The notes under the pieces are model-generated. The model did no database searches. It was not told the origin of the DNA and saw only the letters and a program-made list of their open reading frames with translations. Shown here in pieces: positions 1 to 14,866 of a stretch of 14,866 nt of DNA (positions are counted from its first letter, which is position 1; the number at the start of each line of letters is the position of its first letter). The stretch is taken from the IMG/VR virus record IMGVR_UViG_3300010388_000350, positions 1-14,866 of that record, one strand, 5' to 3'. A program made the position numbers and the translations under genes. This DNA comes from a virus.

Positions 1-55
1 AAAAGTGGCAACGACAATCATCACGGGTCGCGATCTCACATTGACGATTGCGACC
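1..55. repeat. Terminal direct repeat, left copy (identical to 14812-14866)
   Basis: Base-by-base comparison: aaaagtggcaacgacaatcatcacgggtcgcgatctcacattgacgattgcgacc is present at both ends. Confidence 0.95.
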
Positions 56-406
56 ACAAATTATGATGCTCAGGCAACATCAGCGACCCTAAGCAACTCA
101 CCAACCATCGAGGCATATCAGACACTTGATGGCAAAGTTTTTAAGCACATCGATGACACATGGACATTTGCTGTCGAGATGCTTGCAGACTGGGGAGCTA
201 CTTCATCACTATGCGAAGCACTATGGACAGCGGCAGAATCAGCACCAAACACAGCTTTGGCTGTTTCATTGACAGCTGTTTCAGGCGCGGTTTTTGCATT
301 CAATGTTTTGCCTGAATATCCAACTGTGGGCGGTTCAGCACCTGATGCTCAGACTGTAACGCTAAACTTCACAGTGCTTGCAACACCAACTGAAACATTC
401 AGCTAA
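5..406 (+). CDS. Major tail (tube) protein, 133 aa
   Basis: GTG start at 5. The duplicated copy of this start at 14816 is preceded by AAGGAG (14803-14808, 7-nt spacer). It occupies the canonical slot between the neck genes and the chaperone/frameshift/tape-measure block. The sequence is small, Thr/Ala/Ser-rich and looks beta-type. Assignment is by synteny only. Confidence 0.6.
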   Translation: MATTIITGRDLTLTIATTNYDAQATSATLSNSPTIEAYQTLDGKVFKHIDDTWTFAVEMLADWGATSSLCEALWTAAESAPNTALAVSLTAVSGAVFAFNVLPEYPTVGGSAPDAQTVTLNFTVLATPTETFS

Positions 407-428
407 AAACTAGAGATCGGGAGAAAAA

Positions 429-704
429 ATGAAGCTACCAATCACAATCGAATACAACAATGGTGATTCAGATATTTACATCGCGCAGCCGCCTGAATGG
501 GCAAAGTGGGAAGTGAAAACTGGCAACACCATTTCACAGGCACAAGACAAGATCGGCATCAATGATCTGATGTTTTTGGCTTATCACGCCATGAAGCGTG
601 GTTCAGCTGGAAAGCCTGTGAAGCCGTATGAGGCATGGATGGAAACCATCGCTGATGTAAGAGTCGGAGATGATGACCCAAAAGCCACAAGCGCGGAAGC
701 GTAA
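429..704 (+). CDS. Tail assembly chaperone, short (G-like) product, 91 aa
   Basis: ATG 429 is preceded by GGGAGA (419-424). It lies directly after the tail tube gene and before the tape measure. It has an acidic C-terminus, and a slippery heptamer near its 3' end opens an extension in the -1 frame. Confidence 0.65.
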   Translation: MKLPITIEYNNGDSDIYIAQPPEWAKWEVKTGNTISQAQDKIGINDLMFLAYHAMKRGSAGKPVKPYEAWMETIADVRVGDDDPKATSAEA

Positions 705-817
705 GTCGCTTATTGATCGAGGTGGCAATTGCCACTGGAATTCCAATGAGTGAATGGCAAAGCGCGGAAGATATATTGACAGCTTTGGAGATATTGGAGA
801 GCAGGAATGGCAGCTGA
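429..817 (+). CDS. Tail assembly chaperone, frameshifted (G-T-like) product; join(429..683,683..817), about 129 aa
   Basis: The -1 frame after the slip reads SHKRGSVSRLLIEVAIATGIPMSEWQSAEDILTALEILESRNGS*. It fills the only otherwise non-coding ~100-nt gap (705-806) in the structural module. This matches the conserved position of the gpG/gpGT frameshift. Confidence 0.5.
677..683 (+). promoter_or_regulatory. -1 programmed ribosomal frameshift slippery heptamer C_CCA_AAA
   Basis: The zero-frame codons are GAC CCA AAA GCC. CCCAAAA fits the XXXYYYZ rule. The -1 frame is open from here to TGA 815-817, and the zero frame stops at 702-704. Confidence 0.55.
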
Positions 818-1265
818 GCAGGTCTCGTATGATAAGACCGAGCTTCGAGCTGTCATTCGTGCCTTCAAAGCAATGGATGATGAATCCGTACAAGCTGCCA
901 AAACTCAATCGGGAGCTTTAGCTACTTACCTTCAGCGCAAGATCATTGATGCAGCTGGTCAATCTTTCAATCAGGTTGCACCAATGATCGCGCAAGGTTC
1001 GCGTGTTTCAAAGTCGTCAAAGATCGGTGAGATCAGCTTTGGCTTTGCTTCTCAGCGGTTATCAGGCGGCGGCACAACTCAAATGCTTTGGGGCGGTTAT
1101 GAATTCGGCTCAAACAAATATAAGCAATTCCCAAAGTGGTCAGGTCGCGAAGGTCGCGGTTCAAAAGGTTGGTTTATTTATCCGACACTACGAGCAGAGC
1201 AGCCATATTTGATTCGTGAGTGGGAAAATGGCTTTGACAAAATTCTGAAAGAGTGGGATCGCTGA
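807..1265 (+). CDS. HK97 gp10-like neck / tail-completion protein (tentative), 152 aa
   Basis: ATG 807 is preceded by GGAGAG (796-801). The architecture resembles the HK97-gp10-like family: an N-terminal helical segment (ELRAVIRAFKAMDDESVQAAK...), a central GEISFGF, then GGYEFGS and GWFIYPTLRAEQP near the C-terminus. The position between chaperone and tape measure is atypical. Confidence 0.4.
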   Translation: MAAEQVSYDKTELRAVIRAFKAMDDESVQAAKTQSGALATYLQRKIIDAAGQSFNQVAPMIAQGSRVSKSSKIGEISFGFASQRLSGGGTTQMLWGGYEFGSNKYKQFPKWSGREGRGSKGWFIYPTLRAEQPYLIREWENGFDKILKEWDR

Positions 1266-2755
1266 TGGCACAAAGTAGAACCTTGAAGCTGGCTTTGCTG
1301 GCTGACATTGCCAATTTCAGCACCAACATGAACACGGCTGGAAAACAGTCGGACACGCTTGGCGGACAATTTGAAGCTTTCGGAAAAAAGGCAGCTTTGG
1401 CATTTGCCGCAGCTGGCGCAGCTATTGGCGCATATGCAAAGGTGGCGATTGAGAATGCAGCTGCCGATGAAAAGGCACAGCGCAATCTTGCACTCACTAT
1501 CGAAAACACTACATCAGCCACAGCTCGTCAGATCGCTGGCGTTGAGGATTACATCAGCACAACATCGCTGGCAATCGGCATCACCGATGATGAGCTTCGC
1601 CCAGCTTTTGGTCGATTGGTTCGATCCACAAAAGATGTTGAAGATGCACAAAGATTGCTCAATCTTGCACTTGATGTTTCGGCTGCCACAGGCAAGCCGC
1701 TGGAAGCTGTCGCAAATGCGCTTGGCAAGGCATATGACGGCAATCTGAATGCACTTGGTCGCTTAGGTCTAGGCATCGATGCTTCAATCCTTAAATCAAA
1801 GGATTTTGATCTCGTATTTAATACGCTGACAGATACCTTTGGCGGCTTTGCTGCAAATGAAGCTTTGAGCACTGAAGCGGCTTTTGCTCGAATCAAGATC
1901 GCTGGAGATGAAATTCAAGAGCAAATTGGTTCAGCCTTGCTGCCTGTCGTACAAGAGCTCACCACATTCATTCTCACAAATGTTGTGCCAGTGGTTCAGC
2001 AATTTGTAAATGGTCTAACTGGTCAAGGTGGATTGTCATCATCATTGACGGATTCTGAAAAGAAAGCTTTCGCATGGGGCGAAAGAGTCAAAGCTGTCAT
2101 CAAAACTGTTATCCAATTCAAGGATGAACTGATCGCGGTTGCTGGCGTGATCGCAACTGTGTTTGTGGTGTCAAAGATTTCGGCAGCTGTCACAACCACA
2201 ATTGCTTTGATCAAAACTTTAATTGCTGCATATAACGCTTTGAAAGCTTCAGCAATTGTTGCTGGCGTTGCCACAGCTTTTGCATTGAATCCATTGCTAG
2301 GTGTGGGAGCTGTGGCATTGGCAGCGGCTGTCTTGTCAGGTGCAAATGCTTTGGCTAATCGATCCAACGGAATTGACGAAGCACCATCAACAGGTGCAAT
2401 TCCATTTGCATCAGGTTTTGCAGCTCCAGCCAGCTCAGGCGGCGGCACAGGCGGCGGTGGCGGCGGTACGACCACAGGCGGTTCATTCACAGGTGCTGGC
2501 GGTGGCGTGACCACAGCTTCAAAAGCGGCGGCAGCTGCCGCTGAAACAATTATCGGATTGAACACATCATCAGCTCAGGCTTCAGGTTTATCTGATGCAG
2601 CCAATGCAGCTCGATTGGGTCAAGGCACAACAATCAATCTGACTGTGGTTGGTGCTTACGATAAAGAGGGAACAGCGAGAACAATTGTTGAGACTTTGAA
2701 CAATTCAAGCTATCGCGGCGGCGGTGGTGGAGCTGGTTCATTGGTGGCATTGTGA
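1265..2755 (+). CDS. Tape measure protein, 496 aa
   Basis: ATG 1265 overlaps the upstream stop (TGATG); in-frame ATG 1253 is an alternative start. The N-terminal half is Ala-rich and helical. There are long hydrophobic runs (LIAVAGVIATVFVV..., GVGAVALAAAVLSGANALA) and Gly tracts (GGGTGGGGGGTTTGG, RGGGGGAG). It lies directly downstream of the chaperone genes. Confidence 0.85.
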   Translation: MAQSRTLKLALLADIANFSTNMNTAGKQSDTLGGQFEAFGKKAALAFAAAGAAIGAYAKVAIENAAADEKAQRNLALTIENTTSATARQIAGVEDYISTTSLAIGITDDELRPAFGRLVRSTKDVEDAQRLLNLALDVSAATGKPLEAVANALGKAYDGNLNALGRLGLGIDASILKSKDFDLVFNTLTDTFGGFAANEALSTEAAFARIKIAGDEIQEQIGSALLPVVQELTTFILTNVVPVVQQFVNGLTGQGGLSSSLTDSEKKAFAWGERVKAVIKTVIQFKDELIAVAGVIATVFVVSKISAAVTTTIALIKTLIAAYNALKASAIVAGVATAFALNPLLGVGAVALAAAVLSGANALANRSNGIDEAPSTGAIPFASGFAAPASSGGGTGGGGGGTTTGGSFTGAGGGVTTASKAAAAAAETIIGLNTSSAQASGLSDAANAARLGQGTTINLTVVGAYDKEGTARTIVETLNNSSYRGGGGGAGSLVAL

Positions 2756-3999
2756 CCCAGTGGCAACCCATATGGCGTGTAAAGATTGATGGCACTGATT
2801 ACACATCAGCCATTCTTTCAAATCTGACAATCACAAGCGGTCGGACAAATATCTATGAACAGGCAGCCGCAGGGTATGTCAATCTTCAGCTGATCGATGT
2901 CAATCAGGTTGCAATCCCAGTGGAGATCAACAGCTCGATTTCAATCGAAATCAAAAACACATCAAACACATTTGTGCCGATTTTTGGTGGCAATGTGGTG
3001 GACATTGGGCTTGAAGTCAGAGATGTCGGATCAGTTATGTTTTCCCAGACATACAACATCATCGCTTTGGGAGCTTTGGCGCGATTGCCAAAAGCTTTGA
3101 CCAATGGTGTGCTTTCAAAATCTTTTGATGGTGATCAAATATATACAATTCTTTCAGCTGTGCTTTTTGATACATGGGCGGAAGTGCCAGCAGCTACAAC
3201 ATGGGCGACTTATGATCCAACAATTACATGGGCAAATGCAGAAAATTCAGGATTGGGAACAATCGATCGCCCCGGAAATTATGAGCTTGCAAAACGCGAT
3301 TCATCGCGAACAGATGTTTATTCACTGGTTTCAGCTTTAGCAACATCAGGTCTTGGTTATATTTACGAAGATGCACAGGGTCGGATTGGCTATGCAGACA
3401 GCACACATCGAACAAATTATCTTGGAACAAATGGATATGTTGATCTAGATGTCAATCAAGCTCGTGCCGCTGGACTTCGAATCGAAACTAGAGCTGGAGA
3501 TGTCCGAAACAATTTGACCATTCAATATGGTGAAACATCGTCAGCTGATGTCAGTGCCAGTGATGCCACATCGATTGGTTTATATGGGCAACTTTCACAA
3601 ATCATCACAACTACATTGCACAATTCAACAGATGCCACAGCACAGGCAAATTTCTATCTTTCACTCAGAGCCGATCCATATCCAATTTTCAGCTCAATCA
3701 CTTATGACTTGACCAACCCTGAGCTTGACAATTCTGATCGCGACAATCTTTTGAATGTTTTCATGGGTATGCCAATCGCGTTGAGCAATCTGCCGCTGAA
3801 CATGAATAGCGGAACATTTCAGGGCTTTGTCGAAGGCTGGACATTTCAGGCAAACTACAACCGACTCAGCATGTCGATGAATCTTTCCCCACTAGCTTTC
3901 AGCCTTCAGGCGATGCGCTGGAACGATGTACCAATCACCGAAACTTGGTCAAGCGTGTCGCCAACGCTTGACTGGCAATCTGCAACAATTGTTGCCTGA
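2752..3999 (+). CDS. Distal tail (Dit-like) / minor tail protein, 415 aa
   Basis: GTG 2752 overlaps the tape measure stop (GTGA). It is the first gene after the tape measure. The N-terminus WRVKIDGTDYTSAILSNLTITSGRTN...LQLID resembles the start of Dit-type siphovirus tail proteins. Confidence 0.55.
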   Translation: MTQWQPIWRVKIDGTDYTSAILSNLTITSGRTNIYEQAAAGYVNLQLIDVNQVAIPVEINSSISIEIKNTSNTFVPIFGGNVVDIGLEVRDVGSVMFSQTYNIIALGALARLPKALTNGVLSKSFDGDQIYTILSAVLFDTWAEVPAATTWATYDPTITWANAENSGLGTIDRPGNYELAKRDSSRTDVYSLVSALATSGLGYIYEDAQGRIGYADSTHRTNYLGTNGYVDLDVNQARAAGLRIETRAGDVRNNLTIQYGETSSADVSASDATSIGLYGQLSQIITTTLHNSTDATAQANFYLSLRADPYPIFSSITYDLTNPELDNSDRDNLLNVFMGMPIALSNLPLNMNSGTFQGFVEGWTFQANYNRLSMSMNLSPLAFSLQAMRWNDVPITETWSSVSPTLDWQSATIVA

Positions 4000-4011
4000 T
4001 AAGGAGAAAAT

Positions 4012-4536
4012 ATGAGCAATCCAACTTCCGCGTTCGGCTGGCAAATGCCCACATCGACTGATTTGGTCACAGACCTTCCAGCCGATTTTGAAGTATTTGG
4101 TCAAGCTGTCGATACATCATTGGCTGATCTAAAAGGTGGCACAACAGGTCAGGTGCTTTCAAAAGCATCAAACACAGACATGGATTTCACATGGATTGCA
4201 CAAGACGACATGTCGCTTGCAATCAATGCTCAGACAGGTAGTTCATACACAGCTGTCCTCGGCGATGGAACAAATACCCTTGTTTCGATGGACAATGCTT
4301 CATCAAATACTTTTTATATTCCAACGGATGCCAGTGTGAATTTTGATATTGGAACAGTTTTGAATATTTACATGAAAGGTGCAGGGGTCACAACTATCAC
4401 GGCAACGACCCCGGGAACAACAACTGTTGTTTCATCAGGTGCAACAATTGGCTCACCTGTTTTGGCTCGTTATAAGATTGCAAGCGCAATCAAACTTGCT
4501 GCGAATTCATGGACAGTGATCGGTGGCATTGCGTAA
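4012..4536 (+). CDS. Tail fibre / receptor-binding-type minor tail protein, 174 aa
   Basis: AAGGAG (4001-4006) lies 5 nt before ATG 4012. The N-terminal motifs FGWQMPTSTDLVTDLPADFEVFGQAVD and GGTTGQVLSKASNTDMDFTW are of the kind seen at the N-termini of many phage fibre proteins. Confidence 0.5.
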   Translation: MSNPTSAFGWQMPTSTDLVTDLPADFEVFGQAVDTSLADLKGGTTGQVLSKASNTDMDFTWIAQDDMSLAINAQTGSSYTAVLGDGTNTLVSMDNASSNTFYIPTDASVNFDIGTVLNIYMKGAGVTTITATTPGTTTVVSSGATIGSPVLARYKIASAIKLAANSWTVIGGIA

Positions 4537-5372
4537 TGCGAAATCCCATTCTTGGAATTACAGCTCAGGGAATCAAAGTTGCACCAACGGCTGTTGATTA
4601 TTTGGTTGTAGCAGGTGGAGCATCAGGCGGATTCTTTGCAGGTGGTGGCGGCGGAGCTGGCGGATTGCGTACAGCAACAAATTTTGCTGTTTCTAGCGGA
4701 TCATCAATCACAGTGACTGTTGGTGCTGGCGGTTCGCCTAGCGGTGGACAAGGCAACAATGGAAATGATTCTGTATTTTCAACCATCACATCAACTGGTG
4801 GCGGTGGTGGTTCAGGTAACGGCGGCACAGGAAACAGCGGCGGTTCAGGCGGTGGCGGTGGCGGCTTAGGAGCTGGCTCAGGCGGAGCAGGAACATCAGG
4901 TCAAGGTAATGCTGGCGGTGCAACTGTTGCAGGTTCAGGTGGCGGTGGCGGTGGCGGAGCATCAGCAACTGGATCAGCTGGAACAACACCAAGCGGCGTT
5001 GCAACTGGCGGCAATGGTGGAGATGGAACATCGAGCAGCTACTCAGGCGCATCAGTTACATATGCAGGTGGCGGTGGCGGAGCTGCACAAGATCCCCCAG
5101 CACCATCAGGCACAGGTGGAGCAGGTGGCGGTGGCACAGGTGGACAAGGAAACAACATTGTTGCACCAACAGCTGGCACAGCTAACACTGGCGGTGGCGG
5201 TGGCGGTTCATGGTTCGGTGTGAACGCAGGTGCTGGCGGTTCAGGTGTCGTGATCATTCGTTATCCTGACAGCTATGCATTGGCTACATCGACAACAGGA
5301 TCACCAACAGTGACAACCACAGGCGGATACAATATTTACAAATTCACAGGAAGTGGATCGGTGACTTTCTAA
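4536..5372 (+). CDS. Glycine-rich minor tail / fibre protein, 278 aa
   Basis: ATG 4536 overlaps the upstream stop (TAATG); the track start 4509 is less likely. DYLVVAGGASGG...GGGGGAGG, repeated G-rich blocks and the C-terminal GAGGSGVVIIRYP are typical of the phage glycine-rich fibre domain. Confidence 0.65.
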   Translation: MRNPILGITAQGIKVAPTAVDYLVVAGGASGGFFAGGGGGAGGLRTATNFAVSSGSSITVTVGAGGSPSGGQGNNGNDSVFSTITSTGGGGGSGNGGTGNSGGSGGGGGGLGAGSGGAGTSGQGNAGGATVAGSGGGGGGGASATGSAGTTPSGVATGGNGGDGTSSSYSGASVTYAGGGGGAAQDPPAPSGTGGAGGGGTGGQGNNIVAPTAGTANTGGGGGGSWFGVNAGAGGSGVVIIRYPDSYALATSTTGSPTVTTTGGYNIYKFTGSGSVTF

Positions 5373-5659
5373 TGGCACATGCAGCTGAATTAAATGAGAA
5401 TAACGAAGTCATTCGCGTTGTTGTAATTTCTAACGATTGCGAGCCAAATGTTGAAGAATTTGCTACTGAACTATTTGGTGGCACATGGAAGCAGACTTCA
5501 TATAATTCAACAATTCGCAAAAACTTTGCTGGGATTGGTTTCACATATGATCAAGCAATTGATGCATTCATCCCGCCAAAATGCCATGATGAAGCAATTT
5601 TGAATCAAACAACAGCGCAATGGGATTGCGAGAATGAGGCACACAATGTCATTTCCTAA
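5372..5659 (+). CDS. Small hypothetical protein downstream of the fibre genes, 95 aa
   Basis: ATG 5372 overlaps the upstream stop (TAATG). Motifs ELNENNEVIRVVVISND and AGIGFTYDQAIDAFIPP resemble, from memory, small proteins often found next to fibre genes. Function is unknown. Confidence 0.55.
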   Translation: MAHAAELNENNEVIRVVVISNDCEPNVEEFATELFGGTWKQTSYNSTIRKNFAGIGFTYDQAIDAFIPPKCHDEAILNQTTAQWDCENEAHNVIS

Positions 5660-6218
5660 AGGTACAGCTGCACATTTCATCGATGTTGCTTTGGCTGAAG
5701 TGGGAACTGTTGAAGAAGGCGACAACCTGACCAAATACGGCAAATTCACAAAAGCTGATGGATTGCCGTGGTGTGGATCATTTGTCAATTGGTGTGCAAA
5801 TGAGGCTGGGGTCAAGCTGCATTCAGTAGTTTCAACAGCTTTGGGAGCTCATAAATTCAAAGAGGTTTCACGCTGGCATGAGACACCACAGCTCGGCGAT
5901 TGCGCTTTCATGGATTTTCCACATGACGGCATTGACAAAATTTCTCACATTGGAATTGTTGTGGGGATCAAAGCAAAGTCAGTGATCACCATCGAAGGAA
6001 ATACAAGCGGCACAGGCGATCAACGCAATGGCGGCATGGTCATGATCAAGGAAAGAGAATTCGGTGCTGGAAAGCCTGTTGTGGGCTTTGGGCGACCAAA
6101 ATTCGTGCCTTACAAGGGCGAATATCCTGTCATCGAAGTCAAAGAATCAGCACCAAAACCTTCAAAGGAGAAGAAAAATGGAAAGCTTAAAACCATTGCT
6201 GGCAAGCTGGGGTCGTAG
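5646..6218 (+). CDS. CHAP-domain endolysin (peptidoglycan amidase/endopeptidase), 190 aa
   Basis: GAGG (5636-5639) lies 6 nt before ATG 5646; ATG 5634 is an alternative start. CHAP signatures are present: GDNLTKYG, catalytic Cys context LPWCGSFVNWC, His context ISHIGIVV, then TIEGNTS. The C-terminal tail is Lys-rich. No separate wall-binding domain is evident. Confidence 0.8.
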   Translation: MSFPKGTAAHFIDVALAEVGTVEEGDNLTKYGKFTKADGLPWCGSFVNWCANEAGVKLHSVVSTALGAHKFKEVSRWHETPQLGDCAFMDFPHDGIDKISHIGIVVGIKAKSVITIEGNTSGTGDQRNGGMVMIKEREFGAGKPVVGFGRPKFVPYKGEYPVIEVKESAPKPSKEKKNGKLKTIAGKLGS

Positions 6219-6366
6219 TTTTATGGCAGCTTCACTTGCGCTTTACATGGCAGGGGAAACTGATCCAAAGACTTTATTGATGGCAGGTGGAGCAGCTGTT
6301 GCTCCAGTCATTTTGCGTTGGTTAAATCCAAAAGACACAGCTTTCGGGGTCACACGGGGAAGATGA
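6178..6366 (+). CDS. Holin-like protein with two hydrophobic segments, 62 aa
   Basis: AAGGAG (6165-6170) lies 7 nt before ATG 6178, inside the end of the endolysin gene. The hydrophobic segments are SFMAASLALYMAG and LLMAGGAAVAPVILRWL, followed by a charged C-terminus. The longer track version (6064) lacks an RBS and lies wholly inside the endolysin gene. Confidence 0.55.
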   Translation: MESLKPLLASWGRSFMAASLALYMAGETDPKTLLMAGGAAVAPVILRWLNPKDTAFGVTRGR

Positions 6367-6578
6367 TCTCGAAATGGTTACGGCTGGCAGCGTTGATTGT
6401 GGGGTCACTTTCAATGCTGTCAGCTTGTACCTATCAAGGCTGGACAAGATATGAATGTCAAGAATACGAAAACTGGAAAAAGCCTGAGTGTAATCCGCCG
6501 CAATGTAAGGCTCAGGGAATCTGCACTGAGGACATATACGGAAGCGATCCAAATGAAGAAGCCATCGTCACGCCATAG
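6363..6578 (+). CDS. Small Cys-rich lipoprotein, 71 aa
   Basis: ATG 6363 overlaps the holin stop (ATGA). The signal peptide MISKWLRLAALIVGSLSMLSAC ends in the lipobox L-S-A-C. The mature ~49 aa carry four more Cys (C-x10-C-x4-C-x5-C). Confidence 0.5.
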   Translation: MISKWLRLAALIVGSLSMLSACTYQGWTRYECQEYENWKKPECNPPQCKAQGICTEDIYGSDPNEEAIVTP

Positions 6579-6858
6579 ATACACAAATGAACAGCTCAAA
6601 GCTCGCCTGATTGTTTTCATCGGTGTGGCATTGAGCTTCACTTTTGTGTTTTCTGTCGGTGGGATGCTGTATGCGTTGATCTTTGTCACTCAGCCGCTAG
6701 GCAATCAAGCTCCCAATGACAGGGCTTTCATCGAGCTTCTTTCAACACTGACAATCTTTCTCACTGGAGCTTTGGGCAGCGTACTGGCTTCCAATGGCTT
6801 AAAGGACAAACCCAAATCTGTGGATGACACGCCGAAGCAAGATTTGCCTGAATCCTGA
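6553..6858 (+). CDS. Two-TM membrane protein, 101 aa
   Basis: ATG 6553 gives a basic N-terminus (MKKPSSRHRYTNEQLKAR). Two hydrophobic helices follow (LIVFIGVALSFTFVFSVGGMLYALIFV; FIELLSTLTIFLTGALGSVLA), then a charged tail. The upstream part of the track ORF (from 6397) fully overlaps the lipoprotein ORF and was not used. Confidence 0.5.
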   Translation: MKKPSSRHRYTNEQLKARLIVFIGVALSFTFVFSVGGMLYALIFVTQPLGNQAPNDRAFIELLSTLTIFLTGALGSVLASNGLKDKPKSVDDTPKQDLPES

Positions 6859-6916
6859 TTTTGCTTCACCCTGATGCTAGTGGGTCACACTGACTCACGG
6901 AATCGGGAGAAATGAA

Positions 6917-7075
6917 ATGATGCTTGACTTGTTAGACCCAGCCACATTGGGTCGATTGATTGGCGTGATCAGCTTGATGATCATGGGAACAGCTATCGGA
7001 TACGCAAAAGGCTTCAAAGAAGGTCGCCGTGAAGGCATTGCACTTTCGAAGGCAATCCGAAAGGCGGCAAAGTAA
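6917..7075 (+). CDS. Single-TM small protein, 52 aa (below the ORF-track cutoff)
   Basis: GGGAGA (6904-6909) lies 7 nt before ATG 6917. The sequence is MMLDLLDPATLGRLIGVISLMIMGTAIGYAKGFKEGRREGIALSKAIRKAAK: an acidic N-terminus, one TM segment and a strongly basic C-terminus. Its TAA (7073-7075) abuts the next ATG (7076). It is co-directional with every other gene. Confidence 0.45.
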   Translation: MMLDLLDPATLGRLIGVISLMIMGTAIGYAKGFKEGRREGIALSKAIRKAAK

Positions 7076-7744
7076 ATGGGATTTCTAGACAATTACGAAG
7101 GCAACAAAGAGCGAACAGATCGATGGATCGCGACTTACCCTGAAGGCAGACTTGAAGCTCACATCGTTGAATTCAGTGCTGAAAAGGGCTATGTGCTTGT
7201 ACAAGCTAAAGCTTGGCGCAATCAGACTGAAACAGAGCCAGCTGGCATAGATTATGCATACGGCTATCTAGCTGCCTACAACGCGAACATGAAACGCTGG
7301 ATGATCGAGGACACTACGACTTCAGCTTTGATGCGTGTCATGGCACTTGTCATGGGCGGCACTGAAAAGGCTACAAAAGAGACCATGCAACAGGTCGAGA
7401 CGATGAGCACAAAGGTTGCAACAGCTGATGTGAAAAAGGAATATGACTATTGGACAACCAAATTTGGTGATGTGCCATCATGGGATTCACAAGAAGCTGC
7501 ACAGGAAGCTGGTCTGCCTACATTGGGAACAGCTGTCAATGAAATCGCTTCACAGCTAGGCGGTGAGCTAGTCAAAGAAGCTCCACAGTGCCAGCATGGG
7601 CATATGGTGTGGCGCGAAGGCACAAGCCAAAAGACAGGCAAAGCTTGGGCAAATTACAGCTGCACAGAGAAAAACAAAGCAACGCAATGTCAGCCAAATT
7701 GGTATGTGCTGACGAGCGATGGCACATGGAAGCCACAGGTGTGA
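7076..7744 (+). CDS. Early protein of unknown function with a C-terminal Cys/His zinc-ribbon-like module, 222 aa
   Basis: It is a long clean ORF. The N-terminal ~95 aa (ERTDRWIATYPEGRLEAHIVEF...WMIEDTTTSALMRVMALVMGG) resemble, from memory, a recurrent uncharacterised phage early-gene domain. The C-terminus CQHGHMVWREGTSQKTGKAWANYSCTEKNKATQC has metal-ligand spacing. Confidence 0.6.
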   Translation: MGFLDNYEGNKERTDRWIATYPEGRLEAHIVEFSAEKGYVLVQAKAWRNQTETEPAGIDYAYGYLAAYNANMKRWMIEDTTTSALMRVMALVMGGTEKATKETMQQVETMSTKVATADVKKEYDYWTTKFGDVPSWDSQEAAQEAGLPTLGTAVNEIASQLGGELVKEAPQCQHGHMVWREGTSQKTGKAWANYSCTEKNKATQCQPNWYVLTSDGTWKPQV

Positions 7745-7938
7745 TGATGGCTGACTATGTTGAGCTCATAAACCCACAGACCATGACTTGCAAGCTGTTG
7801 TGCAATGGTGAAGTGGTTGAAGAATATGTCGTTGATCGTTGTGACAAGTGCGAAATGATCAAGCGCAAAGATGCTTTTGGCTGGCAAAAAGGCACAGGCG
7901 GCGAAAAGCTCATGTGGTTTTGTGGGTCATGCCGATGA
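7744..7938 (+). CDS. Cys-rich zinc-finger mini-protein, 64 aa
   Basis: ATG 7744 overlaps the upstream stop (TGATG). Six Cys are arranged CxxxC...CxxC...CxxC (TCKLLC, RCDKC, FCGSC). Confidence 0.5.
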   Translation: MMADYVELINPQTMTCKLLCNGEVVEEYVVDRCDKCEMIKRKDAFGWQKGTGGEKLMWFCGSCR

Positions 7939-8423
7939 TCAAGATCAATCTGACACGAGATGATGAGCTTGAATGTGCATCGGTTGCATTTAGGCGAACA
8001 TTTGAAACACCTGAAAAGGTTGATCAGAGCTTTGAAAAGCTCAACACCTTCGATGACATAGCTAGAAACTCTGAAGCCATTGGTGCTGAGATGGCAGCTG
8101 CAAAGCTGTTCGGTTTCAAGGATTGGTCGCCATCAGTGAACACTTTCAAGCGAGAAGCTGATATTGGTTCGAAAATCGAAATCAAGCACACCAAATGGGA
8201 ATCAGGTCATTTGATTATCAAGCCATCAGATCGAGATGAAGATATTGCTGTGTTGGTTACAGGCAAATCACCAACATTCTTTGTCGTTGGATGGATTCCA
8301 GTGGTGATGGCTAAAAAGCCACGATACAAGCATGACAAATCCGAATCATGGTGGGTCTCTCAGCTCAATCTTCAACCCATCGAAAACCTAGCGAGGAGCA
8401 TTTATGGAAACGCTAAACTTTGA
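7935..8423 (+). CDS. PD-(D/E)XK nuclease-fold protein (possible resolvase/endonuclease), 162 aa
   Basis: ATG 7935 overlaps the upstream stop (ATGA); ATG 7929 is an alternative start. There is a helix with Glu (IGAEMAAAKLFGF), then ADIGSKIEIKHTK, which gives a D...E-x-K arrangement. A hydrophobic strand follows (IAVLVTG...FFVVGWI). Confidence 0.45.
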   Translation: MIKINLTRDDELECASVAFRRTFETPEKVDQSFEKLNTFDDIARNSEAIGAEMAAAKLFGFKDWSPSVNTFKREADIGSKIEIKHTKWESGHLIIKPSDRDEDIAVLVTGKSPTFFVVGWIPVVMAKKPRYKHDKSESWWVSQLNLQPIENLARSIYGNAKL

Positions 8424-8565
8424 ATGTCGCGTGTGTAAGAAGGTTACAAAACAGGTCATCATGAAGATCACTGACAACCTTCCAGCTGGCGTTGAGGTGC
8501 TTCAATGCACCAAATGCGAAGTGATGGGTGTTGCACAGATTGGTGTGCATGATGCCAACCTATGA
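8404..8565 (+). CDS. Zinc-ribbon mini-protein, 53 aa (below the ORF-track cutoff)
   Basis: GAGGAG (8393-8398) lies 5 nt before ATG 8404. The sequence is METLNFECRVCKKVTKQVIMKITDNLPAGVEVLQCTKCEVMGVAQIGVHDANL, with CxxC-x23-CxxC. It overlaps the upstream gene by 20 nt and the downstream gene by 14 nt. Confidence 0.45.
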   Translation: METLNFECRVCKKVTKQVIMKITDNLPAGVEVLQCTKCEVMGVAQIGVHDANL

Positions 8566-8728
8566 ATTCAAATGTGGTGTGTGTGGCAACACTGACACAG
8601 TGACAAGATCGATCGATGCTGATGGTGAAATCCCAGCACCACAGTGCCGTGGCTGCACAATCCCGATGGAGCGAATATGGTCATTGGGTGGGATCAGCTT
8701 CAAAGGCACTGGATGGGGTCATCAATGA
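8552..8728 (+). CDS. FmdB-type (CxxC_CxxC_SSSS-like) zinc-ribbon protein, 58 aa
   Basis: The N-terminus MPTYEFKCGVCG, the second pair CRGC 20 residues later and the C-terminal FKGTGW match the hallmark layout of FmdB-family zinc ribbons. The start was chosen at ATG 8552 to give the family-typical MPTYE; ATG 8549 and the track start 8528 are alternatives. Confidence 0.65.
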   Translation: MPTYEFKCGVCGNTDTVTRSIDADGEIPAPQCRGCTIPMERIWSLGGISFKGTGWGHQ

Positions 8729-8729
8729 G

Positions 8730-8738
8730 TTATCCACA
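8730..8738 (+). promoter_or_regulatory. Perfect DnaA-box 9-mer TTATCCACA (copy 1, inside the 13-nt repeat AGTTATCCACAGG 8728-8740)
   Basis: Exact match to the high-affinity DnaA box consensus, read directly from the sequence. Confidence 0.5.
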
Positions 8739-8749
8739 GGGAGAGAAAG

Positions 8750-8758
8750 TTATCCACA
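8750..8758 (+). promoter_or_regulatory. Perfect DnaA-box 9-mer TTATCCACA (copy 2, inside the 13-nt repeat AGTTATCCACAGG 8748-8760)
   Basis: Exact consensus match, in the same orientation as copy 1 and 20 bp downstream of it. Confidence 0.5.
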
Positions 8759-8761
8759 GGC

Positions 8762-8770
8762 TGTGGAAAC
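8762..8770 (-). promoter_or_regulatory. Imperfect inverted DnaA-box-like 9-mer GTTTCCACA (7/9)
   Basis: The top strand reads TGTGGAAAC. It forms the 13-nt palindrome CCACAGGCTGTGG (8754-8766) with copy 2. Confidence 0.35.
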
Positions 8771-8823
8771 ACGCCGAAAACAGGCGCAATTCAATGAAAT
8801 GCAGAGGTGGCTCGGTACGATTC

Positions 8824-9213
8824 ATGCTCGTGAGGCGAGCCGCTGATGCGGATAGCTCGCGATCGAGGCTGAATCTATTGCCATACTTGTGCCTTATAGC
8901 GGCATTGACTTCACAAACGATGCAACCAACACAAGCTGCATCATATTCAATAGATCATTTGAAGCTTTATGCACATTCAAGATTGTTGGACTATAAAGAA
9001 TTCCAGTGTTTCAATCGCATCATCACAAAGGAATCTCGTTGGTCATACACAGCTCGCAATGGGTCACATCATGGGTTGGGTCAGATGAGATCAGAGCACT
9101 ATCGAGACCTCGATCCATATCGTCAAATAGATGCGACCATTCGCTATATAACAAAGCGTTATCAAACACCATGCAAGGCATGGGCATTCCATCAGCTAAG
9201 GAATTACTACTGA
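8824..9213 (+). CDS. Secreted or membrane-anchored lytic-transglycosylase-like (lysozyme-like) protein, 129 aa from ATG 8824
   Basis: The C-terminal domain FNRIITKESRWSYTARNGSHHGLGQM...QIDATIRYITKRYQTPCKAWAFHQLRNYY resembles small SLT/lysozyme-like proteins (catalytic E in ES-x-W, GLGQ, C-terminal AW...Y). It is preceded by a basic n-region and the hydrophobic LNLLPYLCLIAALTS...TQAAS (signal peptide or anchor). The start is uncertain: ATG 8725 (ATGA overlap with the upstream stop) would add 33 basic residues and place the DnaA boxes in coding sequence. Confidence 0.5.
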   Translation: MLVRRAADADSSRSRLNLLPYLCLIAALTSQTMQPTQAASYSIDHLKLYAHSRLLDYKEFQCFNRIITKESRWSYTARNGSHHGLGQMRSEHYRDLDPYRQIDATIRYITKRYQTPCKAWAFHQLRNYY

Positions 9214-9542
9214 TGAGCAATGGTTGGAAGAATGGAAGCACAAGCCGCTGGCGTAAGCTGAGAGCAGCTGTGATCCTGAGAGATGGTGGATGCTGTCAAT
9301 ACTGTGGCTCACAAGAAAACCTTCATGTGGATCACATCATCCCAAAGCGATTGGTTGGAGAAAACGGAGACACGATGGAGAATTTGATCACGGCTTGCAG
9401 ACAGTGCAATTTGAGCAAAGGCGGCAAATTAGCCGAATTAGGCGAAAATCAATCAAAAGGCGGTTTTTTTGGTAAGCACAGGACACCCCCGACTCTCCAT
9501 GTTGGATATATACCCCAAAATGGCAGCGTAAGTCATGACTAA
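9213..9542 (+). CDS. HNH endonuclease (packaging-associated position), 109 aa
   Basis: ATG 9213 overlaps the upstream stop (TGATG). The HNH signature is present: CCQYCGS...LHVDHIIPK...NLITACRQCNLSKG. It lies immediately upstream of, and overlaps, the large terminase gene. Confidence 0.85.
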   Translation: MSNGWKNGSTSRWRKLRAAVILRDGGCCQYCGSQENLHVDHIIPKRLVGENGDTMENLITACRQCNLSKGGKLAELGENQSKGGFFGKHRTPPTLHVGYIPQNGSVSHD

Positions 9543-11037
9543 GGGCGAACAGGTCATGGCACAATGGGTCGCGGTTGAAAGTGGCTCAGATCGGCTCACA
9601 CAGGTTTTTGAGCCGCAATTAGAACCGCTTATTGGCTCAGCAACACCAAGAATCCACACTCCACTGAATGATTTGCCGTCTAGGGGCTTCGAATTGATCG
9701 ATTTCGCTGACACAATCTTTGAAAATGGCTTCATGCCGTGGCAGAAATGGCTTGCTGAACATAGCTTGAAATACAAGCCTGATGGTCGCTGGCAGCATCC
9801 AATCACAGTCACGACTGTTGCAAGGCAGAATGGAAAGAGCACATACATGCTCGCGCTGATTGCAATGAAGCTTTTCCACTGGAATGAATCGCTTCAGGTA
9901 GCTTCAGCTCACAGATTGGTGACATCGCTGGAGCAATTTCGATCTCTCGTGGCAATCATTGAAGCCAATGATGATCTTGCAAAGCGTGTGAAACGCATCC
10001 GCTGGCAGCATGGCGCGGAAGAAATCGAGACTTTGGAAGGCTGTCGATTTGTCATCAAGGCTGGCGGTTCGGCGGCTCGCGGATTGAGCAAGCCTGAAAG
10101 TGTGCATTTGGATGAATTACGCGAAATGCGAGACATCGAATCTTTTGCCAGTTTAAGGTACACCCTGATGGCGGCGAAAAATCCTTCCGTCAGTGCCTTC
10201 ACGAATGCTGGCGATATTCATTCCGTGGTGCTGAATTCTCTCCGTGAAAGAGGGGTCGCAGCGGCGGCAGGTGCAGCTGATGACATTGGCTATTTTGAAT
10301 GGTCAGCGGCAAGCGATGACATCACTGATCCTGAGAATTGGAAAGCTGCCAATCCAGCAATGGGTCACACGATCAATGTGGACAACATCAAAGCTGTGCT
10401 CAATGATCCGCCTGATGTTGTGATGACCGAGGTGCTTTGCAGATGGGTCACATCAATCAACAGCTGTGTGGATTCTGCAAAATGGCAAGCTTGCAGCGAT
10501 GACACTGTGGAGCTTGATCCTGAAAAACTCACATGGCTGGCGATCGATATTTCACCCGACAGAAAACACGCTGCATTGGTGGGGGCTCAGAAGCGTGGGC
10601 TGGATGAAGGCTTCAATGTAAAGCTTCTCCACACATGGACAAATGATCTCCAGCTAGATGACAAAGCGATCGCAAATGATGCGGCTCATTATTGCCGAAA
10701 GTATGCGATGGAATATCTTCTTTTCAGCCGCCGCACTTCAGGTGCTGTTGCAGCTCGAATGCAGCCAGCTGGAATCCCGATCTTTGACATGGATTCGGCG
10801 TATCCACAAGCTTGTGATGAAATGCTCGGTGCTATCAATTCAGGCAGACTTCATCACAAACCGAACTCAGAGCTGACAACACAAATGCTTTCAGCTGTGC
10901 AATTACGCCGTGGCGATGGCGGTTGGGTCATTGGTCGCAGAGCTTCACAAGCTGCCGTGTGTGCAGCTGTGGCGACAGCTTTGGTCACACACTTTGCGAC
11001 ACGCCAAGAGACGGAAATTGATATTTTGGTGGGCTAG
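9535..11037 (+). CDS. Terminase large subunit, 500 aa
   Basis: Walker A-like VARQNGKST, Walker B-like SVHLDELRE and a C-terminal nuclease-type WLAIDISPDRKHAALVGA are present. It is followed by the portal gene. ATG 9556 (MAQWVAVE) is an alternative start. Confidence 0.9.
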   Translation: MTKGEQVMAQWVAVESGSDRLTQVFEPQLEPLIGSATPRIHTPLNDLPSRGFELIDFADTIFENGFMPWQKWLAEHSLKYKPDGRWQHPITVTTVARQNGKSTYMLALIAMKLFHWNESLQVASAHRLVTSLEQFRSLVAIIEANDDLAKRVKRIRWQHGAEEIETLEGCRFVIKAGGSAARGLSKPESVHLDELREMRDIESFASLRYTLMAAKNPSVSAFTNAGDIHSVVLNSLRERGVAAAAGAADDIGYFEWSAASDDITDPENWKAANPAMGHTINVDNIKAVLNDPPDVVMTEVLCRWVTSINSCVDSAKWQACSDDTVELDPEKLTWLAIDISPDRKHAALVGAQKRGLDEGFNVKLLHTWTNDLQLDDKAIANDAAHYCRKYAMEYLLFSRRTSGAVAARMQPAGIPIFDMDSAYPQACDEMLGAINSGRLHHKPNSELTTQMLSAVQLRRGDGGWVIGRRASQAAVCAAVATALVTHFATRQETEIDILVG

Positions 11038-11044
11038 GTGTAAC

Positions 11045-11062
11045 GCCTGAGAAAATTCAGGC
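11045..11062 (+). other. Perfect 6-bp stem / 6-nt loop hairpin (GCCTGA gaaaat TCAGGC) abutting the portal start codon
   Basis: The inverted repeat was read directly. It lies in the 25-nt TerL-portal gap, and no Shine-Dalgarno is visible for the portal ATG at 11063. Confidence 0.3.
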
Positions 11063-12199
11063 ATGGGATTTCGTGATCTATTTGTGCCTACTGTGAAAAC
11101 AGCCGCGCCAGCTGCAATTGCTGATGTTGCAGCTTCACTTGCGCCTGTCAATACAACCGATTCGCTGAATTCATATTGGGTAGCAGCTGGTCAAATAGCT
11201 ACACGCGAAGAAGCTATGTCAATTCCAACAGTCGCTCGCGGCAGAGGAATCATATGCTCATCGATCGCTTCAATCGGCATTGAAGTATGGGATCGATCAA
11301 CAGGCGAAGAAATTGAAGATGTGCCACGCGTATTTCGCACACCTGATCCGCGCATCAATGGTGCAGCCACTTATGTGTGGACAGCGGAAGATTTGCTGTT
11401 TCATGGTTATGCCTATTGGCAGATTACTGAACTTTACAAAGACACGATGCGAATTCGAAGTGTGCAACGCATTGCACCAACACGCGTGACTATCAACACC
11501 AATGCATTGGGAACAGAGATTGTTTCGTACATGGTGGATGGTTCATATGTACCAAATAGCGGTGTTGGTTCACTTGTGGTGTTTTATGGAAACGATGAAG
11601 GACTTCTCAATCGCGCAGGGCGAACAATACGAACAGGCGCAGAATTAGAGAAGGCGGCTGCAAATTATGCTCGCGAGCCAATTCCGTCAATGGTTCTCAA
11701 ATCAAATGGCACAACATTGCCAGCTGACCGCATCAGAGCTTTGCTCGATGCATGGGGAGCTTCTCGCCGTAATCGCAGCACAGCTTTTCTGAATGCTGAT
11801 GTTTCACTTGAAACTGTTGGCTTTGATCCCGAAAAATTGCAGCTCGCTTCAGCGAGAAGTTACATCGCGACCGAGCTTGCAAGAGCAATCGGAATCCCAG
11901 CATTTTTTGTTGATGCTGAAACTGGATCGAGCATGACATATAGCAACAGCGAAACCACAAGAAAAAGCTTGCTGGATTTTTCTTTGCGACCATTGATGAC
12001 AGCCATTGAAGAAAGAATGTCAATGCCGGACTTCTTGCCTTCATCACAAATTGCAAAATTTGATTTGGATTCATACCTACGCGGCAGCGCGGTTGAAAGA
12101 GCCAATGTCTACAAGATTCTCAACAGCATCGTGGATGCTGAAGGAAATGCAGCAATCACAATCGATGAAATCAGAAAAGCAGAGGAGATGATCTCGTGA
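11063..12199 (+). CDS. Portal protein (HK97-family type), 378 aa
   Basis: It lies between the terminase and the protease/capsid gene. The N-terminal region AMSIPTVARGRGIICSSIASIGIEVWD and the later ARSYIATELARAIGIPAFFV are typical of Phage_portal family proteins. Confidence 0.85.
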   Translation: MGFRDLFVPTVKTAAPAAIADVAASLAPVNTTDSLNSYWVAAGQIATREEAMSIPTVARGRGIICSSIASIGIEVWDRSTGEEIEDVPRVFRTPDPRINGAATYVWTAEDLLFHGYAYWQITELYKDTMRIRSVQRIAPTRVTINTNALGTEIVSYMVDGSYVPNSGVGSLVVFYGNDEGLLNRAGRTIRTGAELEKAAANYAREPIPSMVLKSNGTTLPADRIRALLDAWGASRRNRSTAFLNADVSLETVGFDPEKLQLASARSYIATELARAIGIPAFFVDAETGSSMTYSNSETTRKSLLDFSLRPLMTAIEERMSMPDFLPSSQIAKFDLDSYLRGSAVERANVYKILNSIVDAEGNAAITIDEIRKAEEMIS

Positions 12200-13767
12200 A
12201 GGTAACAACACCATTCAAGGTCAGTGCAGCCGATACAAATTCGCGAACCATTTCAGGTCGCATTCTTGAATTTGGCGTCGCTGCAAATGCATCAACAGGC
12301 AAAGTGATGTTCGAAAAAGGATCAGTCGAACCACAGCTCGTGAAGCTTAATTTGGAGCACCAATCAGATCGCCCGATCGGTCGCGCAATCGATATTTCAC
12401 TTTCAGATGATCAATCAACGATGGATGGAATTTTTAAGATTGCCAACACCACAGCTGGTTCAGATAGCTTGGTCGAGGCACAAGATGGGCTTCGCGATGG
12501 CTTCTCGATCGAAGTTGAAGCCGAAGAATATACATGGGCTGAAGATGGAACACTTGTGATTTCAAAAGGTACTTTGACAGGCGTTGCATTGACACACAAT
12601 CCAGCTTTCAAGAATGCTCGTGTCGAAGAAGTCGCAGCAACAGAAGGCGAAGAAGAAACACCTGAAGTTTCTGAATCCGATGTGGATGCAGAAAACCAAC
12701 CAACAACAGAAGGAGACGAAGTGGAAAACACCGTCAATGACGCTTCAGCCGTAGAGACGGTAGAAGCTACTCAGTCAATCAAGGCAGCTGCACCAATCGT
12801 GGGTGGATCATTCACAAAGCCACGCCTTGAATTCACAGCTGCAAAGTATGTGGAAAACACAATCCGCGCTGCAATGGGCGATGAAGATGCTCGTCAGTAT
12901 GTTCGCGCAGCTGACAACACAACCGACAATGCTGGTCTTGTACCAACACGCCAGCTTTCAGAGGTTGTCAATGGACTTTCAACAATGATCCGTCCATCAA
13001 TCGATGCAATTTCTCGTGGTGCATTGCCTGATGCTGGAATGACTTTTGAAATTCCAAAGATCACAGTTGCACCAACAGTTGCTGTGACAGCTGAAGATGG
13101 CACACCATCAGAGACAGATCAAAATTCTGCCTTCATTTCTGTGGATGTTAAGACCTTCTCAGGTCAGCAAACATTTAGCACACAAATTCTCGACCGCAGC
13201 TCACCTGCATTCTTTGAGGAGCTTGTACGAAATATGGCGGCAGCTAAGGCAAAGGCAGAGAATGCTTATGTTTCAGCAGCACTTGTTTCAGCAGCAACAG
13301 CTGACGGCACAACCACAACAACATACCCAACAGCCGCAGAGCTTCTTGGTGTTGTTGCTCGTGGTGCTGCATCAGTTTATGGCGCGACAGCTGGTCTCCC
13401 AAATGGTTTCGCAAAGAACATCATCATGGGTACAGGACAGTGGTCAAATGTAATGACACTGAATGATTCAGGTCGTCCAATTTACACAGCACAGCAACCA
13501 ATGAACGCTGGCGGCGTAGCTCGTCCAGATTCATTGCGTGGCAATGTTGCAGGTCTTGATCTATATGTTGATCCATCACTTGCAGCAACAGATGCTGACG
13601 GCACAATCTTGATCGTCAATCCAGATGCATACACATGGTATGAGGGAAACACATATCGCCTTCGCGCTGATGTTGTAGCTTCAGGTCAGATCACTATCGG
13701 ATATTACGGTTACGGAGCTTTGGCAACAAAGATCGCAGCTGGCGCATTCAAGAATAACAAGGCTTAA
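12196..13767 (+). CDS. Fusion of an HK97-type (S78) prohead protease domain and an HK97-fold major capsid protein, 523 aa
   Basis: GTG 12196 overlaps the portal stop (GTGA), and AGAGGAG (12181-12187) lies upstream. Residues 1-~145 carry LNLEHQSDRPIGRA (His55), RDGFSIEVE (Ser104) and LTGVALTHNPAFKNARV. Residues ~150-205 form an acidic linker. Residues ~205-523 look like an HK97-type capsid protein (AGLVPTRQLSEVV..., FEIPKITVAP..., GLDLYVDPSL..., ILIVNPDAYTWYE). Confidence 0.8.
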   Translation: MKVTTPFKVSAADTNSRTISGRILEFGVAANASTGKVMFEKGSVEPQLVKLNLEHQSDRPIGRAIDISLSDDQSTMDGIFKIANTTAGSDSLVEAQDGLRDGFSIEVEAEEYTWAEDGTLVISKGTLTGVALTHNPAFKNARVEEVAATEGEEETPEVSESDVDAENQPTTEGDEVENTVNDASAVETVEATQSIKAAAPIVGGSFTKPRLEFTAAKYVENTIRAAMGDEDARQYVRAADNTTDNAGLVPTRQLSEVVNGLSTMIRPSIDAISRGALPDAGMTFEIPKITVAPTVAVTAEDGTPSETDQNSAFISVDVKTFSGQQTFSTQILDRSSPAFFEELVRNMAAAKAKAENAYVSAALVSAATADGTTTTTYPTAAELLGVVARGAASVYGATAGLPNGFAKNIIMGTGQWSNVMTLNDSGRPIYTAQQPMNAGGVARPDSLRGNVAGLDLYVDPSLAATDADGTILIVNPDAYTWYEGNTYRLRADVVASGQITIGYYGYGALATKIAAGAFKNNKA

Positions 13768-13785
13768 TCAGCCACCAATCAATCA

Positions 13786-13813
13786 TCGGCTGGGTTCTCC
13801 CGATCTCAGCCGA
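13786..13813 (+). other. Stem-loop (TCGGCTG ... CAGCCGA, 7-bp stem, 14-nt loop) in the capsid-adaptor intergenic gap
   Basis: The inverted repeat was read directly. An alternative 5-bp pairing is ATCGG/CCGAT. No U-tract follows. Confidence 0.25.
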
Positions 13814-13836
13814 GCAGAATCAAAGGAGAAGTGCTC

Positions 13837-14418
13837 ATGCCAGCAATCGTCACAGCTGCACAGTTGCGAACAGTGCTCGGTGTGAGCACTTCCCTTTATT
13901 CAGATGCGTATCTTGATGAAATTATCAACACAGCTGAAAGCGTGATCTTGCCATTGCTGATCGCAAATCAGGTTGCTGTTGTGGATTACAAACTTGAATC
14001 AAATGTCGCTTACTATTACACACAGCGACCACATCATTTTGTTGCAGGTCAGTCTGTTGTTGTAGCTGGTCTCCCAGCTCCATTTTCTGCCACTGTAACT
14101 GTTGCGGACGACAAGCTCACCCCATATTCATTCACAGCTGCCATCACAAATGCTGATGTCACATTGCGAACATCAATCCCAGCTGGCACAGCTACGCTTT
14201 CAGGTTACTCAGCTGCAACACTTTATGCAGACAACGATGCAATCGAATCAGCTGTGTTGGTGGTAAGCGTTGAAGTATTTCAATCTCGCATTGCAGCTGG
14301 CGGACAAATCGAAGGTGTCGATTTTGCTTCAACACCCTACCGCATGGGCAAAAATCTCGCGGCTCGTGTCAGCTCATTGCTTTCAGCTTATCTTGACATC
14401 GAAAGCGTATGTCAATGA
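13837..14418 (+). CDS. Head-tail adaptor (gp6-like connector) with an internal insertion, 193 aa
   Basis: AAGGAG (13823-13828) lies 8 nt before ATG 13837; the track GTG 13831 is too close to the RBS. The N-terminal TAAQLRTVLGVSTSLYSDAYLDEIINTAESVILPLL and the C-terminal IESAVLVVSVEVFQSRIAAGG...RVSSLLSAYL fit gp6-like adaptors. It is the first gene after the capsid gene. Confidence 0.55.
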   Translation: MPAIVTAAQLRTVLGVSTSLYSDAYLDEIINTAESVILPLLIANQVAVVDYKLESNVAYYYTQRPHHFVAGQSVVVAGLPAPFSATVTVADDKLTPYSFTAAITNADVTLRTSIPAGTATLSGYSAATLYADNDAIESAVLVVSVEVFQSRIAAGGQIEGVDFASTPYRMGKNLAARVSSLLSAYLDIESVCQ

Positions 14419-14804
14419 CAGCCAGCACAATCGGATCAGCTGTCCGAACACCATTGGCGAATGCATTTTCTGCATTGGCGGCTTCGATCTATAGCTCAGT
14501 ACCTGAGACAGTAATCAGCCCAGCAATTGTGCTCATTCCTGATTCTCCATATCTCGAACCAAATTTGATCAACCAATCAACCACAAAGCTTCAGGTCAAT
14601 CTTGTCGTGACAGCTATTGTGAATTACAACAGCAACGCTGGCTCATTGGATAACTTGGAGCAGCTTGTTGTGAGCATTCTCGGTGCAATGCCATCGGGGT
14701 ACATTGTGGGAGCTGTCGAGCGACCAACAGTGGTTCAAATCGGTGCAGGATCATTTCTTGCTGCCGATATTTCAGTATCAACCCAATACACACAGACAAA
14801 CTAA
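14415..14804 (+). CDS. Tail terminator / tail completion protein (SPP1 gp17 / DUF3168-like, tentative), 129 aa
   Basis: ATG 14415 overlaps the upstream stop (ATGA); ATG 14409 is an alternative start. It lies immediately upstream of the tail tube gene. The pattern SAVRTPLANAFSALAASIYSSVPETVISPAIVLIPDSP is of the kind seen in DUF3168 proteins. Confidence 0.45.
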   Translation: MTASTIGSAVRTPLANAFSALAASIYSSVPETVISPAIVLIPDSPYLEPNLINQSTTKLQVNLVVTAIVNYNSNAGSLDNLEQLVVSILGAMPSGYIVGAVERPTVVQIGAGSFLAADISVSTQYTQTN

Positions 14805-14811
14805 GGAGCAC

Positions 14812-14866
14812 AAAAGTGGCAACGACAATCATCACGGGTCGCGATCTCACATTGACGATTGCGACC
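14812..14866. repeat. Terminal direct repeat, right copy (identical to 1-55)
   Basis: Same 55-mer as 1-55. The length equals a commonly used assembler k-mer, so it is most simply a circular-contig closure overlap. Confidence 0.95.
14816..14866 (+). other. Duplicate of the first 51 nt of the major tail protein gene (assembly overlap, not a second gene)
   Basis: It is identical to 5-55 and begins with the same GTG. Confidence 0.9.

Follow-up and report, generated by a model that had tools for sequence, protein, structure and literature searches.

The virus sequence analysed here (IMG/VR record IMGVR_UViG_3300010388_000350; the whole 14,866-nucleotide stretch is hereafter the window) has lost a broad set of 4- to 6-base words: whichever reading frame could give rise to them, their counts stay near zero, and its relatives switch them on and off singly; selection against many host restriction systems very probably explains the loss. 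Exact counting gives 0 GGCC, 0 ACGT and 3 CCGG (at 3272, 4411 and 12026), unaltered when the sequence is read over its circular junction and in agreement with the tallies of a prior sequence-only reading of the same DNA. The baseline of 58 occurrences per tetramer used in that reading is too high, as Markov and codon-shuffle null models expect less, and the GCC trinucleotides it put at about one hundred number 136. A maximal-order Markov model predicts 35.5 GGCC, 13.7 ACGT and 20.6 CCGG (z = -7.4, -4.3 and -4.8, respectively), and a synonymous-codon shuffle predicts 30.0, 29.7 and 19.2, the observed counts being reached in none of 1000 shuffles. Under the strict null, a synonymous shuffle that also holds constant codon positions one and two and the two bases that follow the codon, 9.0 GGCC and 6.7 ACGT are still expected and 0/300 shuffles fall at or below the observed counts; neither word occurs in any of the frames for which the null predicts it. 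The CCGG deficit reaches significance with the two looser nulls but not with the strict one. The depletion thus holds under the z-scores and codon-preserving shuffles that the sequence-only reading had suggested as a check, and codon bias does not lose the words equally.

The same reading had described other palindromes as common and had set the pattern apart from general palindrome depletion. GATC, TCGA, TGCA and CGCG are indeed normal or enriched, as is AGCT under the codon shuffle, but GCGC is itself depleted (35 vs 61 in the shuffle), and 38 of the 64 six-base palindromes are absent where 9 absences are expected, so that the loss is broader than the three words first noticed. Also at zero in the window are CCWGG, GGWCC, GGNNCC (22.6 expected), RGCGCY (17.3 expected), GTYRAC, CTGCAG, GATATC and GCAGT/ACTGC, with RGATCY, CGWCG and GACGC at or near zero. 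Rusinov et al. 2018 (PMC6286503) give a list of sites drawn from REBASE, and it contains GGCC, ACGT, CCGG, CCWGG, GGNCC, RGCGCY, RGATCY and ACTGC/GCAGT, the last as a Type IIG site; these lost words are known recognition sites and the five 4-base palindromes named above are spared, as in Type II site avoidance. The HaeIII-like and HpaII/MspI-like enzyme names of the earlier reading are analogies only, the basis being phage sequence. Two candidate motifs were discarded: GTNNAC as a single motif leaves 10 sites, GTYRAC and GTMKAC fitting better, and MnlI-type CCTC avoidance is ruled out by 23 occurrences of GAGG. AGCT, with 195 copies where 101 are expected, and CAGCTG, with 48 where 19 are expected, are in strong excess in the window, possibly by displacement from avoided words; some relatives have lost AAGCT.

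Avoidance of these words has a cost at the protein level. Any Gly-Pro codon pair spells GGNCC and any Pro-Gly codon pair spells CCNGG, and the window proteome contains no Gly-Pro and two Pro-Gly dipeptides, against 17.6 of each from composition, an expectation inflated by glycine-rich proteins. Among relatives, the observed/expected ratio (O/E) of Pro-Gly is 0.73 in those that keep CCNGG and 0.21 in those that have lost it. Two of the three residual CCGG sites encode the two Pro-Gly dipeptides: 3272..3275 spells Pro174-Gly175 of a 415-amino-acid (415-aa) minor tail protein, a position at which 150 of 151 relatives have Pro-Gly, and 4411..4414 spells the only other one, in the gene at 4012-4536. 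The third (12026..12029) lies in the portal gene at a Pro-Asp, is not forced by the protein, and is common to some members of the clade described below. Elsewhere the dipeptides are replaced: portal residues 99-100 (11357..11362, + strand) are Asn-Gly in the window and Pro-Gly in 89 of 97 CCNGG-keeping relatives; residues 154-155 of a putative adaptor (14296..14301, + strand) are Ala-Gly in the window, whereas 72 of the 104 relatives that keep CCNGG have Pro-Gly there and none of the 33 relatives low in CCNGG does; and portal residues 27-28 (11141..11146, + strand) are Ala-Pro in the window and Gly-Pro in 40 of 51 GGNCC-keeping relatives, all of these being counts among relatives that share ancestry. 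The absence of Trp-Pro was set aside as an uninformative signal, this dipeptide being rare in all relatives.

The losses persist among close relatives and vary among more distant ones. The window belongs to a clade of 20 sequences (itself included; 83-89% nucleotide identity to the window; 212,018 bp), several of them partial or near-duplicate, which together contain 3 GGCC, 4 ACGT, 32 CCGG and 31 CCWGG. A separate pooled count for the clade puts GGNCC at 4 of 164 and CCNGG at 20 of 171. A neutral synonymous redraw to 85-89% identity restores 17-22 GGCC and 17-22 ACGT per genome. Counts in 157 related loci are bimodal: a given word is close to absent or present at 2-6 per kb, the words combine in many ways, and GATC too has been lost by some of these loci; relatives with equal GC and homologous proteins carry the words at 3-5 per kb. 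On a portal tree of 46 rows the state changes at least 7 times for GGCC, at least 7 times for ACGT and at least 9 times for CCGG, and the terminase tree concurs for ACGT and GGCC. The loss is lineage-specific and upheld against synonymous drift, as in Type II site avoidance; the codon nulls, the on/off pattern among relatives, this persistence despite synonymous divergence and the Pro-Gly and Gly-Pro replacements together support the proposal of the sequence-only reading that host Type II sites are selected against. A distant miniphage lineage (loci L370, L372, L346, L379, L349, L380, L373 and L384; 26-30% identity in the terminase large subunit, TerL, where present) is likewise without GGCC, ACGT, CCWGG and CGWCG and low in CCGG, while keeping RGATCY, GCAGT and CATCT, and is a candidate for sharing the host clade of the window phage. 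Contig L164 joins a purged, window-like part to a foreign tail of 3 kb (9700-12802) in which the counts are normal. The motif profile shifts abruptly in L164, L066 and L020, marking them as chimeras or recombinants whose junctions the missing words locate. Candidate Type I-like bipartite words (CCA-N8-TCC, 1/63; CAT-N7-TCC; CAA-N7-GTA) and the interrupted palindrome AAG-N7-CTT are depleted in the clade; such bipartite words were drawn from many tests and are leads only.

The less expected part of the pattern, and one worth following up, is the avoidance of words on one strand across the family. The coding strand of the window lacks or nearly lacks six 5-mers whose reverse complements it keeps, where shuffles give 0.02 such words. 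CATCT is absent against 32 AGATG and ACCAG against 11 CTGGT; CTGCG has a sole coding-strand copy (4499..4503, + strand) against 15 CGCAG, and GTTTG one (2161..2165, + strand) against 14 CAAAC. The clade totals have the same polarity for CATCT (13 vs 318 AGATG), GTTTG (24 vs 234 CAAAC), ACCAG (13 vs 194 CTGGT), CCACC (14 vs 430 GGTGG) and CTGCG (29 vs 250 CGCAG); the polarity of GCTCT and CAAGT was dismissed, not being conserved in the clade. One-strand words average 2.5 per genome in 70 family genomes, compared with 0-1 in cultured, GC-matched controls (T7, PA6, lambda and P-SSP7) and 0-2 in other freshwater phage contigs. Of the 71 distinct words, 41 (58%) carry an adenine at the third or fourth position of one strand only, a property of 26% of eligible words; five pairs are seen in both polarities, in few genomes, and most pairs go one way. 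CGCAG, from a lost-polarity pair of the window clade, is a listed Type III site (PMC6329791, Table 4), and AGACC, CACAG and CAGAG, Type III sites given in PMC6286503, are lost from one strand in relatives, as is ACAGC, also a documented Type III site; AGATG, CAAAC, GCAGG and CTGGT are not among the Type III sites listed. Type III enzymes require two inverted sites (PMC12602166), and we lean slightly towards Type III-like enzymes as the source of the one-strand losses.

We propose the following mechanism. The phage, with no integrase or methylase detected, would enter cells as unmodified DNA, and the host population, probably a freshwater actinobacterium, would carry many interchangeable restriction-modification (R-M) systems, with GGCC, ACGT, CCGG, CCWGG, GGWCC, GGNNCC, RGCGCY, GTYRAC, RGATCY, CGWCG and others as their presumed targets. 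Every new site would cut the odds of escaping cleavage and would be selected away, through synonymous change if the code allows it and through an altered amino acid if all codon pairs spell the word (Gly-Pro and Pro-Gly), and the sites remaining would be only an invariant Pro-Gly and rare young sites. With less certainty, the asymmetric one-strand 5-mer losses may reflect Type III-like enzymes and their need for two inverted sites. Consistent with this proposal, genomic island 3 of Planktophila holds variable Type I and II systems together with Dcm-like methylases (PMC12817590). Our literature search, made largely without subscription journals, found no published report of site avoidance in these phages.

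Several observations weigh against this interpretation. Words that a C-to-T change would make from the lost ones show a mild excess; the relatives share ancestry and several clade loci are near-duplicate or partial, so that counts are not independent events; the comparison covers phage sequences only; and two high-GC control actinophages give 4 and 6 one-strand words, so false positives exist. Single-molecule real-time (SMRT) sequencing detects 5-methylcytosine (m5C) poorly, which tempers a further negative. This is the lack of methylated motifs in seven Lake Biwa actinobacterial metagenome-assembled genomes (MAGs; PMC6329791), tempered as well by the variation of R-M genes within lake populations (PMC9426551).

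The enrichment of C-to-T products bears on a mutational explanation, in which phage DNA is marked at GGCC, ACGT and CCGG by orphan m5C methylases of the host as it replicates, and the words are then eroded by deamination, not by selection. Word-losing genomes are enriched in GGTC/GACC (1.43 vs 0.96), ATGT/ACAT (0.90 vs 0.69) and CTGG/CCAG (1.31 vs 1.07), as deamination would have it; transversion products are equally enriched, however (GGCG 1.44 vs 1.04; CAGG 1.18 vs 0.72), the depletion is about 100-fold (GGCC 3 vs 252), and the replacements of Pro-Gly by Ala-Gly, Asn-Gly or Pro-Ala and of Gly-Pro by Ala-Pro or Ser-Ala are mostly not C-to-T changes. Nor do the loss of GATC in some relatives and the one-strand losses fit deamination, which we consider improbable. 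A codon, codon-pair or general compositional bias, such as loss of TpA or avoidance of Shine-Dalgarno sequences, is the least credible source of the gaps. TpA is low throughout the window (O/E = 0.38; CpG is mildly low at 0.78) and TA-containing 4-mers are as low as GGCC in a simple shuffle; CCGG, as said, fails the strictest null, and the loss of GGAGG may be Shine-Dalgarno avoidance, inseparable from restriction avoidance. Against such a bias, GGCC and ACGT stay significantly depleted whichever of the three nulls is used and have no copy in any frame where copies are predicted, and the words switch independently and are frequent in the equal-GC relatives with homologous proteins; the nulls and the switching on the portal tree have already largely refuted it.

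Some of the words, foremost those lost from one strand, might instead reflect another defence, such as MazF-type mRNA interferases acting on the coding strand, BREX, DISARM or Type IIG/ISP enzymes. All genes lie on the + strand and the loss is mostly on the coding strand, and CCWGG is the motif of DISARM DrmMII. To this can be added the Type IIG listing of ACTGC/GCAGT (PMC6286503). An RNase is unable to explain words lost on both strands, and the five pairs found in both polarities, the one-strand-adenine pattern of 41 of 71 words and the documented Type III sites AGACC, CACAG, ACAGC, CAGAG and CGCAG among the one-strand pairs also count against this alternative. Other sequence-specific defences could explain part of the lost-word set; as the explanation they are very unlikely, and avoidance of restriction sites is the reading that we retain.

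The window is a complete circular miniphage genome (1..14811; 47% GC; about 25 genes, all on the + strand): positions 14812-14866 duplicate 1-55, a 55-base terminal repeat that gives a circle of 14,811 bp. A Logan contig of 14,841 bp, which may share the sample of the window, covers 1-14811 with zero differing letters; the runs that hold the sequence best are freshwater metagenomes, and partial matches come from estuary, lake and aquaculture samples. The genes, all on the + strand, include a CHAP endolysin (5646..6218; closest cultured matches in Streptomyces phages), small non-structural genes (6917..9542; L5/D29 gp49-like, zinc ribbon, transglycosylase and HNH, the HNH gene adjoining that of the terminase), TerL (9535..11037; closest cultured matches actinophages at ~28-30% identity), a PF04860 portal protein (11063..12199) and a prohead protease-major capsid fusion (12196..13767) as in 17-kb Microbacterium phages, besides tail genes, among them that of the minor tail protein, and small unknowns. 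Region 4012-5659, after the minor tail gene, contains more or fewer genes, of differing size, from one clade member to another, includes a glycine-rich PF21722 protein, and is likely a receptor-binding module. Scans with Pfam, PHROGs and PADLOC gave no methylase or anti-restriction match among the genes scanned, several small genes being of unknown function; no integrase or tRNA was detected in the genome, no replication gene or terminase small subunit was recognised in its 14.8 kb (window 5-14804), and neither the window nor its close relatives have whiB.

A clade relative, L252, encodes a 210-aa C5 DNA methylase (684-1316) between the zinc-ribbon and transglycosylase genes, with the full avoidance pattern still present. 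This methylase family is very large among freshwater phages, and its carriers (L341-L420) mostly keep RGATCY, at a median of 0.28 of GATC vs 0.00 in methylase-negative loci; protection of RGATCY by the enzyme was rejected as an explanation, being confounded by lineage, and two close-family carriers are still without RGATCY. The L252 methylase is 70-88% identical to methylases of five whiB-bearing phage contigs. Because of this kinship and because the closest cultured homologues of the window genes are in actinophages, the window phage probably infects Actinomycetota; Nanopelagicales as host is no more than a guess of ours, suggested by habitat and GC. A 16S probe for acI had zero matches in the viral contigs, and the Atlas clusters contained viral members only. 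A relative in a GTDB Alphaproteobacteria MAG (L081 in G001) was set aside as a host clue owing to probable mis-binning, the Type II pair there being unassignable to a site. The lost-word signature itself, which the sequence-only reading had hoped might help to identify the host, yielded no host identification.

Site avoidance is a known evasion strategy, of which the window is a very clean and unusually broad case in an uncultured miniphage family, and the strategy apparently extends to words lost from one strand only. We see about even chances that evasion in this family is systematic for Type III enzymes and for some of Types I and IIG, their sites being either turned to one orientation or eliminated, in contrast to what the survey of cultured phages found, and that each set of missing words records the restriction systems pooled within a single actinobacterial clade of fresh water and could assign hosts. 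This possible use as a host fingerprint likewise merits follow-up. A dozen or more purged sites, partly paid for in virion amino acids, would imply strong and diverse restriction if these Actinomycetota are the hosts. To our knowledge, streamlined freshwater Actinomycetota are without CRISPR, and the imprint, if real, could assign hosts to phages of such CRISPR-less bacteria. Since each lineage has its own missing words and distant lineages can have the same ones, the words would predict specific host methylomes, against which recently cultured Nanopelagicales can be compared to assign hosts.

Among known phages, the window resembles the miniphages that Kavagutti et al. 2019 (PMC6802176) described from fresh water, tailed lake phages of 13.5-15 kb. 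The word 'restriction' is absent from that paper, and the window clade differs from those phages by lacking whiB; clade member L247 is LR797166.1 (14,209 bp; 46.3% GC over the part analysed). With 17-kb Microbacterium phages such as Leafy (Orlajensenviridae) it has in common the gene order and the fused protease-capsid, although these phages differ in ~25% identity, 69% GC and no comparable purge of 4-base palindromes. T7 is known for loss of GATC and CCWGG and for EcoP15I sites all in one orientation; in our measurements it has 0-4 GATC per 14.8 kb, lacks 29-31 of the 64 six-base palindromes, contains 0 CAGCAG vs 36 CTGCTG, and has 2-7 Gly-Pro and 2-3 Pro-Gly against ~12, so the dipeptide deficit is not unique to the window. 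T7 purges one 4-base palindrome and by our test has no one-strand 5-mer, whereas the window purges three and shows six, and T7 encodes Ocr, whereas none of the window genes could be recognised as anti-restriction. Type II site avoidance in non-temperate double-stranded DNA phages was surveyed by Rusinov et al. 2018 (PMC6286503), and the window resembles it in having lost orthodox Type II sites almost completely in a phage without detected methylase or integrase. The survey reports outright elimination for roughly one case in ten and saw no systematic avoidance of Type I, IIG or III sites, strand-asymmetric avoidance included; the window, by contrast, has lost a IIG word on both strands and several 5-mers on one strand, and candidate bipartite words are depleted.

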